In this document: positions 57,853-64,000 of the stretch, piece after piece | Layout of the letters: each line of letters starts with the position of its first letter | Numbering within the stretch: position 1 is the stretch's first letter | NCBI GenBank assembly: GCA_964492195.1 | Contig: CAZBJL010000004.1 | Span: 3,621-67,620, forward strand | Origin: an uncultured Candidatus Saccharibacteria bacterium | GTDB taxonomy: Bacteria; Patescibacteriota; Minisyncoccia; Phycocordibacterales; DATGWK01 | Direction: 5' to 3' | DNA length: 64,000 nucleotides | Made by a program: the position numbers and the translations under genes | Notes under the pieces: generated by a model | Seen by the model: the letters and a program-made list of their open reading frames with translations, nothing else | Databases searched by the model: none | Told to the model about the DNA's origin: nothing

Positions 57853-58479
57853 CTATACAAGAGAAGCGATGACTGCAAAATCTTTTTTAAGCCCCCCTTT
57901 TGTACCACCGTTATACAGAGCCACCGCTGGATGGTAGAGTGGAACAATTTTTACTTTTCCGTATGAAACAGTGGCTTCATAAATCTTGCCATGAGCCTGG
58001 GAAATCGGCAGGATTTCAGATTCAAGACCGAATTTTTTCATAATATATACCATCGAAAAACGCCCAAGCGTTGCAATTACTCTTGGCTTAATAATGTCGA
58101 TCTGACGGTCCAAAAATGGTCCGTAGAGTGCAATTTCATCTGGAAGTGGATCACGATTATTTGTCGGTCGATCCTTCACAATATTTGTTACATACACTGA
58201 TCCGCGCGGCATATTGATAGAAGCAAGAAGTTCATCCAAAATTCTACCCGACGCGCCGCAAAATGGCCGGCCGGTTTCAGCTTCATTTTTACCAGGAGCT
58301 TCGCCTATAAACATTATTTTTGCGAAATGGTCGCCTTCCCCAATTACAGGATGTGCCTTGTTTGCAATTCTCTCCTTATACAGTGGCGATACAGAAAAAT
58401 TTAATACGTCATCTTTCACTTGCTTCATACGCTCGTGACGATTTTCTACGTCTTTAGTTTGTTCGAGTTCGGACGTCAT
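57853..58479 (-). CDS. udg: Uracil-DNA glycosylase, family 4
   Basis: GEGDHFAKIMFIGEAPGKNEAETGRPFCGASGRIL: the family 4 UDG signature (GEAPG..E...G.PF.G.AG). Confidence 0.85.
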   Translation of the reverse strand: MTSELEQTKDVENRHERMKQVKDDVLNFSVSPLYKERIANKAHPVIGEGDHFAKIMFIGEAPGKNEAETGRPFCGASGRILDELLASINMPRGSVYVTNIVKDRPTNNRDPLPDEIALYGPFLDRQIDIIKPRVIATLGRFSMVYIMKKFGLESEILPISQAHGKIYEATVSYGKVKIVPLYHPAVALYNGGTKGGLKKDFAVIASLV

Positions 58480-58482
58480 ACA

Positions 58483-58758
58483 TTACTTTTTTCCAGAATT
58501 GGCTTTTTCTTTTCTTAAAATTTCTCTTTTGACTTCCATTCCGCCACGATTGTACCCGCCCATGCCGCCATCAGACCGAACAACACGATGGCATGGAATG
58601 TGTGGATCGTAGTTTGTTTTAAGAATACTTCCGACTGCACGATATGCTTTTGGCCGACCAGCCTTTTCTGCCACCAGTTTATATGTAAGCGTCTTACCTT
58701 CAGGAATTTTTCTTACGATTGCAAAAACTTTTTCTACAAATGGTGAAGTTGATTTCAT
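58483..58758 (-). CDS. ogt: Methylated-DNA--protein-cysteine methyltransferase, DNA-binding/active-site domain only (Ogt/MGMT family)
   Basis: 91 aa; HTH plus the active-site PCHRVV motif with the Cys retained. Confidence 0.8.
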   Translation of the reverse strand: MKSTSPFVEKVFAIVRKIPEGKTLTYKLVAEKAGRPKAYRAVGSILKTNYDPHIPCHRVVRSDGGMGGYNRGGMEVKREILRKEKANSGKK

Positions 58759-58762
58759 GAAC

Positions 58763-59614
58763 TTAGAAAAGTGGTTGATTTGAATCCTTAATTTTTTTCA
58801 CATTTTTGGGAACTGATTTTGTTTTCGGCTTTTTAGTTTCAGAGTGAGGAGTTATTTCTGGTAATCCAGCTTCGCTCTCAACAAGAATAATATATGAACA
58901 ATATTCGCAATCACTATTGCCTGTGGGAATTTTTTCAGACATCAAACACTCTTTAATATCGTGCAGCGTTTGATCAATCCACCCATCATTGCCTTCGTAG
59001 GGAATAACAGCAACATCAAATTCTAGTTTGCCATCGAACGCTTCCTTGTCCGTTTTGCCGTTTACATATACAAAATACCCAACATTAGAAACCTTGAAAT
59101 CATTCTGCCTAAAAAGCCATTGGTATATTTCCATTTGGCGTTTATATTGAATTTTCCACTCATCATCAAGCGTAATTTTGCCTTCTTTACTTGTTGCTTT
59201 GTAGTCAACGATAATTAATTCGCCGGAAGGAGTAACCCAGACATCATCAATACCTCCGCGGATAAAAAGATTGGTTGGTTTGTGGAGGGTCGCAATACCG
59301 CGTTTGAGAGCATCGCGCCACTCCTCCATTCTTTCATGCTTAAAAGGTACTGCATCAATCTTGTACGCTTTCATTAATGGATGAGCAGCTTGCTTTGTTC
59401 GATACACGTCGAATTCCTTTTTGAGAAGTAAATCGACAGCGCTGTTGAGAGCGAACGGTGGACCTTTCGGACGCGAAACACCTCTACAGCTATCGAGATA
59501 AAAACATCGCTGACACTGCGTAAAAAGCTCGATTTTTGTGCGGCTTAATTTGAATGGATCTTTTGATTTTCTGTCAAAAAGGTACCATTGTCTCTTTTTT
59601 GCAGGAAACGGCAT
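58763..59614 (-). CDS. Cas4/RecB-like PD-(D/E)xK nuclease with Fe-S cluster cysteines (standalone)
   Basis: N-terminal Cys cluster (CQRCFYLDSC). GGIDDVW...IIVDYKAT (D...D.K core). QYKRQMEIYQWL (QxxxY). C-terminal Cys (C...CEYC). No CRISPR array or other cas genes in the window. Confidence 0.65.
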   Translation of the reverse strand: MPFPAKKRQWYLFDRKSKDPFKLSRTKIELFTQCQRCFYLDSCRGVSRPKGPPFALNSAVDLLLKKEFDVYRTKQAAHPLMKAYKIDAVPFKHERMEEWRDALKRGIATLHKPTNLFIRGGIDDVWVTPSGELIIVDYKATSKEGKITLDDEWKIQYKRQMEIYQWLFRQNDFKVSNVGYFVYVNGKTDKEAFDGKLEFDVAVIPYEGNDGWIDQTLHDIKECLMSEKIPTGNSDCEYCSYIILVESEAGLPEITPHSETKKPKTKSVPKNVKKIKDSNQPLF

Positions 59615-59620
59615 GTAAAA

Positions 59621-60451
59621 TTAAATATTGTTTACTTCCTCAACTATTTTTTCTGCACGATCTTTTGGTAAACCAGCATCTATGAGGATTGAGGTGTTAT
59701 TGCGAATTTGTTTGCAGAGCACAATTCCTTGTTGAAGGAGCGATTTCAATTCCCCACTATGGATTTCAGTAAGACACGTAATGGGCATGAGGTCACCGTC
59801 TTCGATCATAGATTGCAAACTTACGTCACCCGGATAATTCCAGCCGATCATTGTCATGTTTTTGCAGAGTCCGTATTCGATCGCAGTGGAAGTAAAACCA
59901 GTGTTGGTGATTAGCCACGCTTCGTTCAGTGTTCGGCGTTTATTGCCGTAAAAATGCGTCACTTCAAGCAAATCATCGAATCTTGCCTTTACGTAAAGCG
60001 CAACCTTCAAATCGCATTTCATTCCACGCTGATTGTGAAATTTTGCTTCACACATAATAAGTTTTTTATCGTTCCAGGCAACAACGTCAACTTCATGCTC
60101 AACACAACCACCTTTCACAATTTGATTTGTTTCCGCAGAATAGCCTTGGCTTCTAAAAATTTCAGCGACATACTTTTCAAATGGAAATCCGGAAGGACCA
60201 AGAGCAGAAACGGCTTGTCGCATTCCGTATCGATATGAAGCAGGAGTTTGAAATTTATGCAAAAGGAAAAAGGCGTGTTTGTAGATTTGGGCGGTCGTCG
60301 TACCATCCACTAATTCCTTTTGAACGTGGTCGATGATTTTACTAACAATTTCAGGACTTGCTTTCGCCGCTGTAAGCGATTTCTCGAGCTTACTTGGGTC
60401 AAACTGTTCCAATTGGCCATTGGCCTTCAAAACATTCGGTATATTGGTCAT
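59621..60451 (-). CDS. ATP-cone domain fused to a restriction-endonuclease-like (Mrr_cat-type PD-(D/E)xK) domain
   Basis: Residues ~5-90: VLKANGQLEQFDPSKLEKSLTAA...IVSKIIDHVQKEL...TTAQIYKHAFFLL (ATP-cone pattern). Then GYSAETNQIVKGGCVEHEVDVVAWNDKKLIMCEAKFHN (D/E...ExK endonuclease core). Confidence 0.6.
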   Translation of the reverse strand: MTNIPNVLKANGQLEQFDPSKLEKSLTAAKASPEIVSKIIDHVQKELVDGTTTAQIYKHAFFLLHKFQTPASYRYGMRQAVSALGPSGFPFEKYVAEIFRSQGYSAETNQIVKGGCVEHEVDVVAWNDKKLIMCEAKFHNQRGMKCDLKVALYVKARFDDLLEVTHFYGNKRRTLNEAWLITNTGFTSTAIEYGLCKNMTMIGWNYPGDVSLQSMIEDGDLMPITCLTEIHSGELKSLLQQGIVLCKQIRNNTSILIDAGLPKDRAEKIVEEVNNI

Positions 60452-60460
60452 GTTTTTATT

Positions 60461-61456
60461 TTACCTTAAATAGAGTTGTTTGTTTTTCACATGTTCAGAA
60501 AATGTCGAAGCATAATGCATCTTCCCCGCACCATCTGACAAGAAATAGTAATACGTGGTTTTCTCTGGGGTAATTGTCGCAAGGATAGAATCAAGTCCTG
60601 GATTCGCAATCGGTGTTGGCGGAAGCCCAGGATTTTTGTAGACGTTATACGGAGAATCATCAGCAAGGTCAGCTCGGGTAAGTTCCGCGGTTGTTTTGCC
60701 GTTAATGTATTTAAACGCAACATCAACTTGAAGAGGCATTCCTTCATCAATTCGTTTCCAGAGAATACCAGCAATAATTCGTCGAGTTTCGAAATCTCGC
60801 GCTTCAGTTTCGACAATCGACGCCATCGTAATAATGTCATCCACACTTTTTCCAAATTCTATAATTTCTTTTTCGTGAAGTTTTATATGAACGTCAAAAT
60901 TAACTTTCATGGTTTCGATCGCTTTTTTCGATGTCACGTTTGGAGCAAAAAAGTATGTGTCTGGAAATAAATACCCTTCCGGAGCGGTCAGAAGAAACGT
61001 TTCAATATCAAAATGAGGCAAACGACGGACAAGCAACTGCCCAATTTCAAATTTATTAAGACCTTCCGGGATCGTAATTTTTACGGGCTGTATGTTGAAT
61101 TTGCCGTGCACAACTCTCTCGGCAATAGAATACGCGGACAGCGGCTTCTCAAACATATAATCCCCTGCAATAACTCCAGAACCTTCAAGAAAAATACCAC
61201 CGACAATGGCCTCAAAAGCTAATTCGGAGCGAATATATCCTTTTGATCTCAAGGATTTTGCAATTTCTGAAAGAGTCTGGCCACTTTCTATTGTAAAAAT
61301 TTCATCGGATGTAAACGCATCGGACGGAGCGATCAGAAAATAAAGCACGATACATACGAGAAACAGAGCAAAAACCACGCCAACAAATATCTGAAAGCGA
61401 GAAGATACTCTGAAATCCCGGTACGACTGAAATTGATTCATGAGTCGATCCATCAC
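60461..61456 (-). CDS. mltG: Endolytic murein transglycosylase MltG (YceG-like)
   Basis: N-terminal TM, YceG domain with ...DSPYNVYKNPGLPPTPIANPG... signature. Confidence 0.85.
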   Translation of the reverse strand: MMDRLMNQFQSYRDFRVSSRFQIFVGVVFALFLVCIVLYFLIAPSDAFTSDEIFTIESGQTLSEIAKSLRSKGYIRSELAFEAIVGGIFLEGSGVIAGDYMFEKPLSAYSIAERVVHGKFNIQPVKITIPEGLNKFEIGQLLVRRLPHFDIETFLLTAPEGYLFPDTYFFAPNVTSKKAIETMKVNFDVHIKLHEKEIIEFGKSVDDIITMASIVETEARDFETRRIIAGILWKRIDEGMPLQVDVAFKYINGKTTAELTRADLADDSPYNVYKNPGLPPTPIANPGLDSILATITPEKTTYYYFLSDGAGKMHYASTFSEHVKNKQLYLR

Positions 61457-62780: not shown

Positions 62781-63830
62781 TTAAGCTAACGAGTACCGAT
62801 TCTGTTTGTCTTTTTTGAAGAATTTTGAATTCTGGAGGTTCACAAGAATGGTGTTTGGTTTCACGTATCGTTCCGTAAGTACCTTCTCAATGATTTTTTC
62901 CTTTGTAAGCGGACCATCCTTTTCGAGAATCTTTTTGATGACGTCTTTTACAACACCGCTCATATATCCCCACTCTGCGAGCGCATAGAGACCACGACCA
63001 ACAAGAACAAAACGAGGATCTTTAATGAGTTCGTTGTGTGTTGTTGCAACGTGCGCTTTTTTATTGAACACTTCTGTGATCAAACGAGCAACTTCACGGA
63101 AATGAATTGGAGAACCATGCTTTCGAATAACGAGAAACGCGTAATCTCGAACACCACGAGCATTGATGTTTGAAGATCCTGATTTACCCCATTCACCGAG
63201 CGGGTTTTTATTCAAAGACTTTGACATCCAGAGCCAACGCTTGATGACTTCTTCATTTTTGTACTCTTCGGAAACGTCTTTAATGTAAGAAAGGAATGAT
63301 TCGATGATTGTTGATTCTGGAACGATCGCATCGTCGTCGAGATCACTGTAAATCTTTCGGAGTGTTTCGTGAATTTTTTCGGCAAGCTTGTTGTCGATAT
63401 GCCAATGAGTTTTGAACTCTTCGTCTTCTTTATATTTTTTGAAATCTTCACCAACAACAAGGAGGAAATGAGTATGGTTTTGAGTAGATTTATCAGAAGA
63501 AAATTTATTTAAGAGGTCGTGCTCGGAAAGTACGCCACCAAGTCCAGAAAGATGCTGTTTCAATTCCTGAAACGCCTTCGTTTCTTTTTCGTACTCTTTT
63601 GATTTTCGAATATTGGTAATCGAGTGGTTTTCAATCTGACGAACTCGCTCACGAGTGATGCCGTATTTTTTACCAATTGATTCGAGTGTCATTTTCTTTG
63701 TTTCGGTACCGAGACCGTAACGGCTTGAAACAACATCGCGTCCGCGCTCAGAGAGAACTCCGAGTAAACGTTTCGTTACCTGCTTTGGATTAAATGACGG
63801 TGTTATTTGTTTTGTTTTCTTTTCACTCAT
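62781..63830 (-). CDS. Sigma-70 region 4 domain fused to a C-terminal HARE-HTH domain (putative transcription regulator)
   Basis: Start at ATG (MSEKKTKQ...); the track's TTG-start extension runs through the promoter. Region-4-like VLSERGRDVVSSRYGLGTETKKMTLESIGKKYGITRERVRQIENHSITNIRK. C-terminal HARE-HTH-like ...AFLVIRKHGSPIHFREVARLITE...RFVLVGRGLYALAEWGY. Confidence 0.65.
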   Translation of the reverse strand: MSEKKTKQITPSFNPKQVTKRLLGVLSERGRDVVSSRYGLGTETKKMTLESIGKKYGITRERVRQIENHSITNIRKSKEYEKETKAFQELKQHLSGLGGVLSEHDLLNKFSSDKSTQNHTHFLLVVGEDFKKYKEDEEFKTHWHIDNKLAEKIHETLRKIYSDLDDDAIVPESTIIESFLSYIKDVSEEYKNEEVIKRWLWMSKSLNKNPLGEWGKSGSSNINARGVRDYAFLVIRKHGSPIHFREVARLITEVFNKKAHVATTHNELIKDPRFVLVGRGLYALAEWGYMSGVVKDVIKKILEKDGPLTKEKIIEKVLTERYVKPNTILVNLQNSKFFKKDKQNRYSLA

Positions 63831-63865
63831 GATTTTTAATCGGCCTTTAATATAATTACGACAAA

Positions 63866-63894
63866 TTTTACTATCATTGCTGAAATTAGTCAAT
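63866..63894 (-). promoter_or_regulatory. Sigma-70-type promoter (TTGACT-17-TAAAAT) for the sigma-r4/HARE-HTH gene
   Basis: On the minus strand: ttgact (63894..63889), 17-nt spacer, taaaat (63871..63866), about 35 nt upstream of the ATG. Confidence 0.4.
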
Positions 63895-64000
63895 ACGTCT
63901 TGACATAAAGGCAAAATTTAGCCAATTACGAAGTTAATCAACTTATTTTTAACAAAAATCACCTTCTTGATTGTGGCTCCATTAAGCCATTTTTTTACAT

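Follow-up and report, generated by a model that had tools for sequence, protein, structure and literature searches.

What does a nuclease do with the nucleotide sensor of ribonucleotide reductase (RNR)? The question is raised by a gene encoded in a stretch of 64,000 nucleotides (nt) from contig CAZBJL010000004.1 of an uncultured Candidatus Saccharibacteria bacterium, the whole of which is here termed the window. A reading of this DNA made from the sequence alone had proposed that the gene product joins an ATP-cone to a nuclease of the Mrr type, and that it might act as an anti-phage or abortive-infection effector or as a repair enzyme coupled to the deoxynucleoside triphosphate (dNTP) pool. 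The analysis reported here places the protein in the AF1548 family and leads us to propose, tentatively and with a little less than even confidence, that it is an adenine-nucleotide-gated endonuclease feeding nucleotide salvage or catabolism.

Domain architecture and spread of the family

The fusion of an ATP-cone to an Mrr-type PD-(D/E)xK nuclease is upheld by sequence, profile and structure alike. The two motifs quoted in the sequence-only reading are both found in the open reading frame (ORF), as VLKANGQLEQFDPSKLEKSL and CVEHEVDVVAWNDKKLIMCEAKFH, and in the Pfam mapping that it had called for both the ATP-cone (PF03477; amino acids (aa) 6-56, E 7.7e-7, 30.0 bits against a gathering score of 25.8) and Mrr_cat (PF04471; aa 88-194, E 3.9e-7, 30.6 bits against 21) score above threshold. 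So does a third model, AF1548-like_C (PF22357; aa 223-276, E 5e-6, 27 bits against 23.9), while none of the NCBIfam models matches the protein. AlphaFold2, given 24 homologs, produced a confident model (predicted local distance difference test 90.6, predicted template-modelling score 0.78), the three parts of which agree with the Pfam domains. The nuclease, formerly placed in the C-terminal half, is in fact the middle domain and is followed by a third; the cone and the nuclease had been correctly recognized, and what had been overlooked is the (HhH)2-like third domain and the existence of a solved structure (PDB 1Y88).

A protein identical to the window ORF is present in a public protein collection (P0001), and 3,785 close relatives were found. 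These searches gave 1,089 clusters at 50% identity with E ≤ 1e-3, 428 of them with E ≤ 1e-30, and nearly all of the best 150 of the 1,089 clusters are 265-300 aa long and extend over the three domains. Among species-representative genomes, at least 592 have a family member, the best 80 being all Patescibacteria, and a second large branch, with at least 7,522 matches, populates the Bacteroidota. With a family of this size, the fusion is far beyond chance.

The structure of AF1548 from Archaeoglobus fulgidus (PDB 1Y88, 199 residues) matches aa 94-274 of the window protein, the homology spanning the nuclease and the C-terminal helical domain, and the cone is absent from the chain. The notion that the cone is an optional add-on, AF1548 being without one, was nevertheless rejected, since the 1Y88 construct looks truncated. 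The best match to the 1Y88 core is an Archaeoglobus protein (P0415) of 265 aa that is 99% identical over this core and opens with a canonical ATP-cone (MLRVRKRDGRLEEF...), and the window protein aligns with this full-length Archaeoglobus sequence from aa 6 to 276 at 34% identity. Because of this near-identical, cone-bearing protein and the full-length alignment, the construct appears to stem from an N-terminally truncated gene model. Essentially all archaeal homologs listed are 260-290 aa long and carry the cone, in Archaeoglobus, Geoglobus, Ferroglobus, Korarchaeota, Bathyarchaeia, Aenigmarchaeota and Altiarchaeales, and with the listed bacterial homologs included the same holds for nearly all. 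The three-domain architecture is fixed in Archaea, Patescibacteria, Bacteroidota and Chlamydiota, and is ancient and obligatory.

The family and its architecture are already catalogued, in Pfam, in NCBI names and in a 2004 structural-genomics entry, and the window copy is an ordinary member. As had been surmised, relatives are annotated only generically ('restriction endonuclease', 'ATPase', 'ATP cone domain-containing protein', 'Holliday junction resolvase') and the family is functionally uncharacterized: literature searches on the fusion, on AF1548 and on COG1787, which we take to be the same family as AF1548, gave no characterization, nor did the searched literature yield any description of ATP-cone control of a nuclease. 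The sole functional statement found (PMC1821046) predicts a restriction-endonuclease function and a D/E/K triad for AF1548. The main text of a survey of PD-(D/E)xK proteins does not mention the family (PMC3424549), a Prochlorococcus preprint names COG1787 merely generically, and a P. aeruginosa metalloproteome paper proved to be a false lead.

Conservation was assessed on 139 representatives, 33-45% identical to the window protein. The ATP-cone fold is complete in the model (β-hairpin 6-8/14-16; helices 19-28, 33-46, 53-67 and 71-82), and structure searches with this part recover the cones of NrdR and RNR. Residues K9, G12, F17, K21, S25, T53 and Y75 are at least 90% conserved, and I56 (81%, otherwise L or V), E15 (75%) and L22 (70%) are kept less strictly. 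When the family profile is aligned to E. coli NrdR (K9=K53, A10=S54, E15=E59, F17=F61, K21=K65, L22=L66, T53=S105, I56=I108), the corresponding NrdR residues are those that reportedly bind the nucleotide of the inner site (bioRxiv 10.1101/2025.03.28.645925). Among the representatives, position 10 is occupied by a small residue throughout (A, S, G or T) in place of Arg. The window motif reads K-A-N-G where archaeal members of the family keep the canonical K-R-D-G. A degenerate cone, as the replacement of Arg10 by Ala might imply, was considered and ruled out: because E. coli NrdR itself has Ser54 at this position and archaeal members retain K-R-D-G, the K-A-x-G motif is no sign of decay, and the other contact positions are kept. 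The window cone retains most of the positions with which NrdR holds ATP or dATP, and it is probably functional.

The nuclease core shows the αβββαβ fold of PD-(D/E)xK enzymes in the model. The catalytic D/E...ExK residues, whose alignment to Mrr_cat cores the sequence-only reading had proposed as a check, are present, conserved and within the Mrr_cat match: E92, D122, E135 and K137 do not vary in any of the 139 representatives and correspond to the triad predicted for AF1548 (PMC1821046), and G85, G88, F91, G114, E120, R157, D160 and P223 are invariant as well. An intact active site of the Mrr/Hjc type is thereby predicted. Around it, C116, H119, H139 and C196 (nt 60035-60106 and 59864-59866) are near-invariant, three of them (C116, H139 and C196) being found also in AF1548, and these residues may bind a metal or act as a redox switch. 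The loop that connects the second core helix to the fourth strand, after aa ~163, tolerates insertions of ~30-120 low-complexity residues, as seen in homologs P0152, P0168, P0195 and P0254, and is a variable surface region.

Structure searches with the model identify the predicted C-terminal domain as (HhH)2/SAM-like, presumably a non-specific module for nucleic-acid binding or dimerization. On the nature of the substrate, this domain suggests duplex DNA, and the β-CASP nuclease encoded next to homologs in other phyla (see below) points in the opposite direction, for it carries an RNA-type RMMBL domain.

Gene neighbourhoods in other phyla and in Patescibacteria

In three other lineages, the Bacteroidota, the Chlamydiota and the Bathyarchaeia, the nuclease gene is linked in operons to genes of nucleotide catabolism and salvage. 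The gene order in Bathyarchaeia is ribose-1,5-bisphosphate (R15P) isomerase, AMP phosphorylase and nuclease, the latter overlapping the end of the AMP phosphorylase gene by 11 nt, and the two enzymes exceed the cutoffs of their models (AMP phosphorylase TIGR03327, 617 bits against 535; isomerase TIGR00511, 419 against 314). Both are signature enzymes of the archaeal nucleoside monophosphate (NMP) degradation pathway, which is found also in the candidate phyla radiation (CPR) and which joins phosphoribosyl pyrophosphate (PRPP) synthase through a PRPP → AMP → R15P route (PMC5113843).

Two full-length plasmid copies were found, in Pontibacter and Criblamydia, and on both plasmids the nuclease heads a tight string that continues with a β-CASP nuclease (Lactamase_B, Beta-Casp and RMMBL domains), a TP-family phosphorylase and a PRPP synthase (Prs) of subfamily NF005537. 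The TP-family partner scores above the cutoff of TIGR02645 and just below that of the AMP-phosphorylase model (480-506 bits against 535). The same string is carried by Cyclobacterium, and in Criblamydia it has phosphoketolase, glycogen phosphorylase and acetate kinase as flanking genes. We examined 92 loci of the second branch, of which 68 non-CPR loci have at least 1.5 kb of downstream sequence. A β-CASP gene lies directly downstream in 20 of these 68, most gaps being -34 to +21 nt, and in a further 12 a single 84-aa ORF intervenes; overall, β-CASP genes accompany the nuclease in 37 loci, TP-family genes in 19 and Prs in 17.

The islands of Bacteroidota carry in addition tandem Usp, Hsp20, PFK, a DeoC/LacD aldolase, a GAPDH-like protein, a 2-hydroxyacid dehydrogenase, MgtC/DUF4010, PPK2 and P-type ATPases. 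The Bacteroidota and Chlamydiota copies are an accessory gene of stress islands of the energy-limitation or low-oxygen type. The Burkholderia lxa locus is a comparable low-oxygen island, in which the family protein is not described (PMC3721108), and in Bradyrhizobium microoxia raises protein as well as RNA levels of bll3115-3117, which are MBL, Prs and TP-family genes (PMC6515984). On proteobacterial plasmids, the β-CASP MBL nuclease is widespread without the ATP-cone nuclease, as on Agrobacterium pAtCFBP6623a (L175) and a Legionella plasmid (L174), often together with a TP-family phosphorylase, a PRPP synthase, a phosphoketolase-like gene and P-type ATPases. Several Bacteroidota species (L082-L086; Sphingobacterium, Myroides and related contigs) share an identical family member, located between a DeoC-family aldolase and a copper P-type ATPase in a conjugative-transposon-like copper-resistance island with RteC; this identity indicates recent horizontal spread within the phylum.

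Among the Archaea, the Ferroglobus gene (L176) is overlapped at its start by 1 nt by an upstream corA gene, and the Geoglobus gene has a permease-Usp fusion as its upstream neighbour, Hjc being encoded separately at a distance of 2 kb. Genes related to Mg2+ recur beside family members in three branches, namely Ferroglobus, Patescibacteria, where mgtC lies directly downstream in 11 loci (e.g. L070 8829-9308), and Bacteroidota, with islands bearing MgtC/DUF4010 and P-type ATPases (e.g. L118 3860-5128).

The setting in the window is of another kind. The window is a core region with dcw genes, aminoacyl-tRNA synthetases, DnaK/DnaJ, DnaB, RecR and ribosomal proteins, and the GC content of the gene (0.414) matches that of the window as a whole (0.419), which is uniform. 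Unbiased ORF clustering of 80 related Patescibacteria loci, ~1 Mb in total, revealed a conserved backbone that runs from LeuRS through Sigma70_r4/HARE-HTH, DUF8128, YceG/MltG, the nuclease and a set of variable genes to AlaRS, an FtsA-like protein, IF-1, S13 and S11, and the nuclease is 42-57% identical across these loci. The mltG gene lies directly upstream on the same strand in 56 of the 80 loci, at a median gap of 18 nt, and alaS follows a few genes downstream in 57. Recent horizontal transfer of the window gene was rejected on the grounds of uniform GC content and synteny across related genomes. The conserved syntenic backbone constitutes the signature of a housekeeping gene rather than that of a defence island, and in Patescibacteria the gene is native.

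The coordinates of the gene, its domains and its neighbours are listed in Table 1. The DUF8128 and Sigma70_r4/HARE-HTH block is conserved upstream of mltG in 55-58 of the 80 loci, and in many Patescibacteria loci (L002, L003 and L005 among them) the nuclease is preceded by a pair of adjacent ORFs from the YceG/MltG cluster, as against a single one in the window, an arrangement that may reflect either a tandem paralog or a split gene. The variable genes on the downstream side comprise uracil-DNA glycosylase (UDG; 45 loci), the Cas4-like nuclease (17), MgtC (13), an HD_3/YfbR-like 5'-deoxynucleotidase (11), PCMT (7) and an MGMT-like protein (7), and also M3 peptidases and DUF7282. The Cas4-like gene is directly downstream of the target in 12 of its 17 loci. 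In the window, its product has cysteines at positions 34, 37, 43, 223, 236 and 239 that may form an Fe-S cluster as in Cas4/AddB, and no CRISPR context was seen beside it. The 91-aa window protein consists of the MGMT 'DNA_binding_1' domain alone, with its PCHRV active-site motif intact, and would be a minimal single-domain O6-alkylguanine alkyltransferase.

Table 1. Position of the nuclease gene, its predicted domains and the neighbouring genes in the window.
Feature	Coordinates	Strand	Evidence and remarks
Complete ORF, AF1548 family	59621..60451	(-)	276 aa; ATG start, TAA stop at 59621-59623; ATP-cone + PD-(D/E)xK + (HhH)2-like
ATP-cone domain, aa 6-83	60203..60436	(-)	Pfam PF03477, model secondary structure, NrdR/RNR cone matches
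Fourth catalytic residue E92, outside the active-site segment CVEHEVDVVAWNDKKLIMCEAKFH	60176-60178	(-)	
Mrr-type PD-(D/E)xK nuclease core, aa 88-205	59837..60190	(-)	
Active-site segment CVEHEVDVVAWNDKKLIMCEAKFH, aa 116-139	60035..60106	(-)	Contains D122, E135 and K137
C-terminal helical (HhH)2/SAM-like domain, aa 210-276	59624..59824	(-)	
Sigma70_r4 + HARE-HTH protein	62781-63914	(-)	
DUF8128 protein, 409 aa	61459-62688	(-)	No match in local Pfam copy
yceG/mltG, upstream neighbour	60461..61456	(-)	9-nt gap to target; Pfam YceG E 2e-68
Variable downstream gene set	57853..59614	(-)	3-6 nt gaps; Pfam, NCBIfam, PADLOC
Cas4-like PDDEXK_1 nuclease, 283 aa	58763-59614	(-)	Starts 6 nt past target stop
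MGMT-type alkyltransferase domain protein, 91 aa	58483-58758	(-)	
Family-4-type UDG	57853-58479	(-)	

Proposed function and competing explanations

In the mechanism that we propose, the nuclease would be a cytoplasmic enzyme that its (HhH)2-like domain keeps attached to a nucleic-acid backbone, whatever the sequence. Binding of ATP or dATP to the cone would alter its oligomeric state, as in RNR and NrdR, and the change of oligomer would switch cleavage on or off. The nuclease would then act as the regulated endonucleolytic entry step of nucleic-acid turnover, supplying (deoxy)nucleoside monophosphates to salvage and to the AMP-phosphorylase/R15P (pentose bisphosphate) route, and breakdown would be matched to adenylate or dNTP status, mirroring the control that ATP-cones exert over dNTP synthesis. 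Nucleotide binding, oligomerization and cleavage are inferred for every family member, and the role in salvage or catabolism is proposed because the operons of homologs from other phyla also encode enzymes that recycle nucleotides. In Patescibacteria, the 5'-deoxynucleotidase genes mentioned above can be counted in favour of salvage, and these organisms are described as having limited metabolic capacities and as unable to make nucleotides (PMC5113843). A bolder version, which we regard as doubtful, sees in the AF1548 family the missing regulated entry enzyme of the NMP/pentose-bisphosphate pathway (AMP phosphorylase, R15P isomerase and RuBisCO) and of salvage routes in Archaea and CPR, an ATP/dATP-sensing endonuclease that would adjust the breakdown of nucleic acid, whether endogenous or imported, to adenylate or dNTP status.

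Several observations weigh against a role in nucleotide salvage. In tblastn searches of the window and the 80 related loci, β-CASP, TP-family/AMP phosphorylase, Prs, Usp and PPK2 are all absent, and with no such partners near the Patescibacteria copies the role is carried over from homologs with no more than 34-40% identity. Of the 238 plasmid records on which the β-CASP/TP/Prs module occurs, two have the nuclease, which is therefore dispensable for the module. The contexts in Sporocytophaga, Aenigmarchaeota, Ferroglobus and Geoglobus are uninformative, and repair genes are neighbours of the family in two branches: the UDG, Cas4-like and MGMT-like genes in Patescibacteria and, in Korarchaeota, where the copy lies near a Bmp-family binding protein, a purine DNA glycosylase (Pur_DNA_glyco).

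These neighbours give substance to the idea, which we hold to be unlikely though not remote, of a repair or recombination endonuclease licensed by the dNTP pool. Such an enzyme would be structure- or lesion-specific and would cut only when the cone reports enough dATP or ATP for resynthesis, with the (HhH)2 domain keeping the nuclease on DNA and the adjoining glycosylase, alkyltransferase and Cas4-like genes supplying its working partners. The three repair-type genes that follow the nuclease in the window at gaps of only 3-6 nt, the frequency of UDG and Cas4-like genes in the related loci and the Korarchaeota glycosylase all favour it, as does the arrangement of a nuclease followed by (HhH)2, which recalls XPF/Mus81/Hef. 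The downstream genes vary, however, and include MgtC, peptidases, PCMT and DUF7282 without any constant repair partner; moreover, the whole region is a conserved backbone, in which adjacency may reflect inheritance and not function. Geoglobus has its separate Hjc gene close by, and the operon partners in other phyla are catabolic and salvage enzymes, not repair proteins. The neighbourhoods in the three other lineages point to turnover or salvage more strongly than to repair coupled to the dNTP pool.

The defence function put forward in the sequence-only reading, in which the cone would sense a phage-caused disturbance of dNTP or ATP and unleash a non-specific nuclease, fares much worse and seems to us very improbable. 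It can draw on structural neighbours of the protein, among which are the ligand-gated Mrr-like effectors Can2, Card1-like VC1899, NucC and Cap4, as well as MspJI and AspBHI, and on some Bacteroidota copies that reside on conjugative-transposon-like or plasmid DNA. Weak PADLOC matches to the nuclease domains of ZorD and Csx1 (E 7e-4 to 8e-3) lend it a further argument, yet PADLOC-DB holds no significant defence-model match, the best being to the Mrr-like domain of ZorD at E 7e-4. In the 80 Patescibacteria loci examined, the gene occupies a fixed housekeeping slot. It has a native GC content, and no methyltransferase, immunity or other defence gene is adjacent to it in the window. Searches of 50,697 phage records and of 2.9 million viral contigs gave no relative, and the PHROGs matches are at the level of domains (RNR cone or nuclease domain) without an equivalent family. 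The mobile copies lie in islands for metal resistance or energy stress and not in defence islands.

Hardly more credible is a housekeeping nuclease that has replaced RuvX/YqgF in Paceibacteria, be it in pre-16S rRNA processing or in junction resolution. This explanation takes its cue from the alaS-ruvX-mltG cluster of Firmicutes and Actinobacteria, since the Patescibacteria gene fills the slot between mltG and alaS in most related loci. It is compatible with the partial retention of yqgF in CPR, in 10-90% of genomes (PMC12641178), but the order of transcription is reversed (mltG, nuclease, alaS) with variable genes in between, and both the ATP-cone and the contexts in other phyla would be left unexplained.

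Relation to known systems and significance

The closest counterparts of the cone are the NrdR repressor and the activity sites of RNR, with which it shares the sensor fold and most nucleotide-contact positions, and by analogy oligomerization dependent on ATP or dATP would be expected of the window protein. The outputs differ, being a Zn-ribbon DNA binder or the RNR catalytic barrel in those proteins and a nuclease with an (HhH)2 module here. How cone and nuclease interact is not visible in any structure, as the deposited AF1548 chain (1Y88, PF22357) is without the cone. In the ligand-gated defence nucleases Can2, Card1/VC1899, Cdn1, NucC and Cap4 a CARF or SAVED domain reads cyclic oligonucleotides, whereas an ATP-cone reads housekeeping nucleotides, and the window gene has a conserved housekeeping position in Patescibacteria with neither a CRISPR nor a CBASS context. 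Unlike the type IV enzymes Mrr, MspJI and AspBHI, the window protein has no reader of modified DNA, whether winged-helix or SRA-like, and no restriction context; an ATP-cone forms its N-terminus, and with this and the (HhH)2 domain as extra domains it falls outside the Mrr-like type IV group. It shows no significant sequence match to XPF/Mus81/Hef or to Hjc, and the Hjc Pfam model does not match it, which places it outside the Hjc family too.

The NMP-degradation pathway is related to the family through gene order. Homologs share an operon with AMP phosphorylase and R15P isomerase in Bathyarchaeia, and with an AMP-phosphorylase-like enzyme and Prs in Bacteroidota and Chlamydiota; by contrast, no nuclease is described as a member of the pathway (PMC5113843; Aono 2012, 2015 as cited there), and the pathway genes do not lie near the window gene. 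This link between the family and the NMP and pentose-bisphosphate pathway makes for a concrete, testable proposal. It is open to direct experiment, given that the proteins are small and soluble-looking, that one has been partly crystallized and that cultured Bacteroidota carry the gene. The analysis also corrects the record for PDB 1Y88, the construct of which appears to lack the regulatory domain.

ATP-cones have so far been understood as a switch of dNTP synthesis, in RNR and in NrdR, and the family described here, ancient and widespread, puts the cone on a nuclease. If the proposal is true, nucleic-acid breakdown would be regulated by the same signal as dNTP synthesis, and the nuclease could be what provides nucleotides for the AMP-phosphorylase/RuBisCO pathway and for the salvage routes of ultra-small symbionts. 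On the bolder version, this would be the first case of ATP-cone allostery over nucleic-acid breakdown and, in ultra-small bacteria, a core function.

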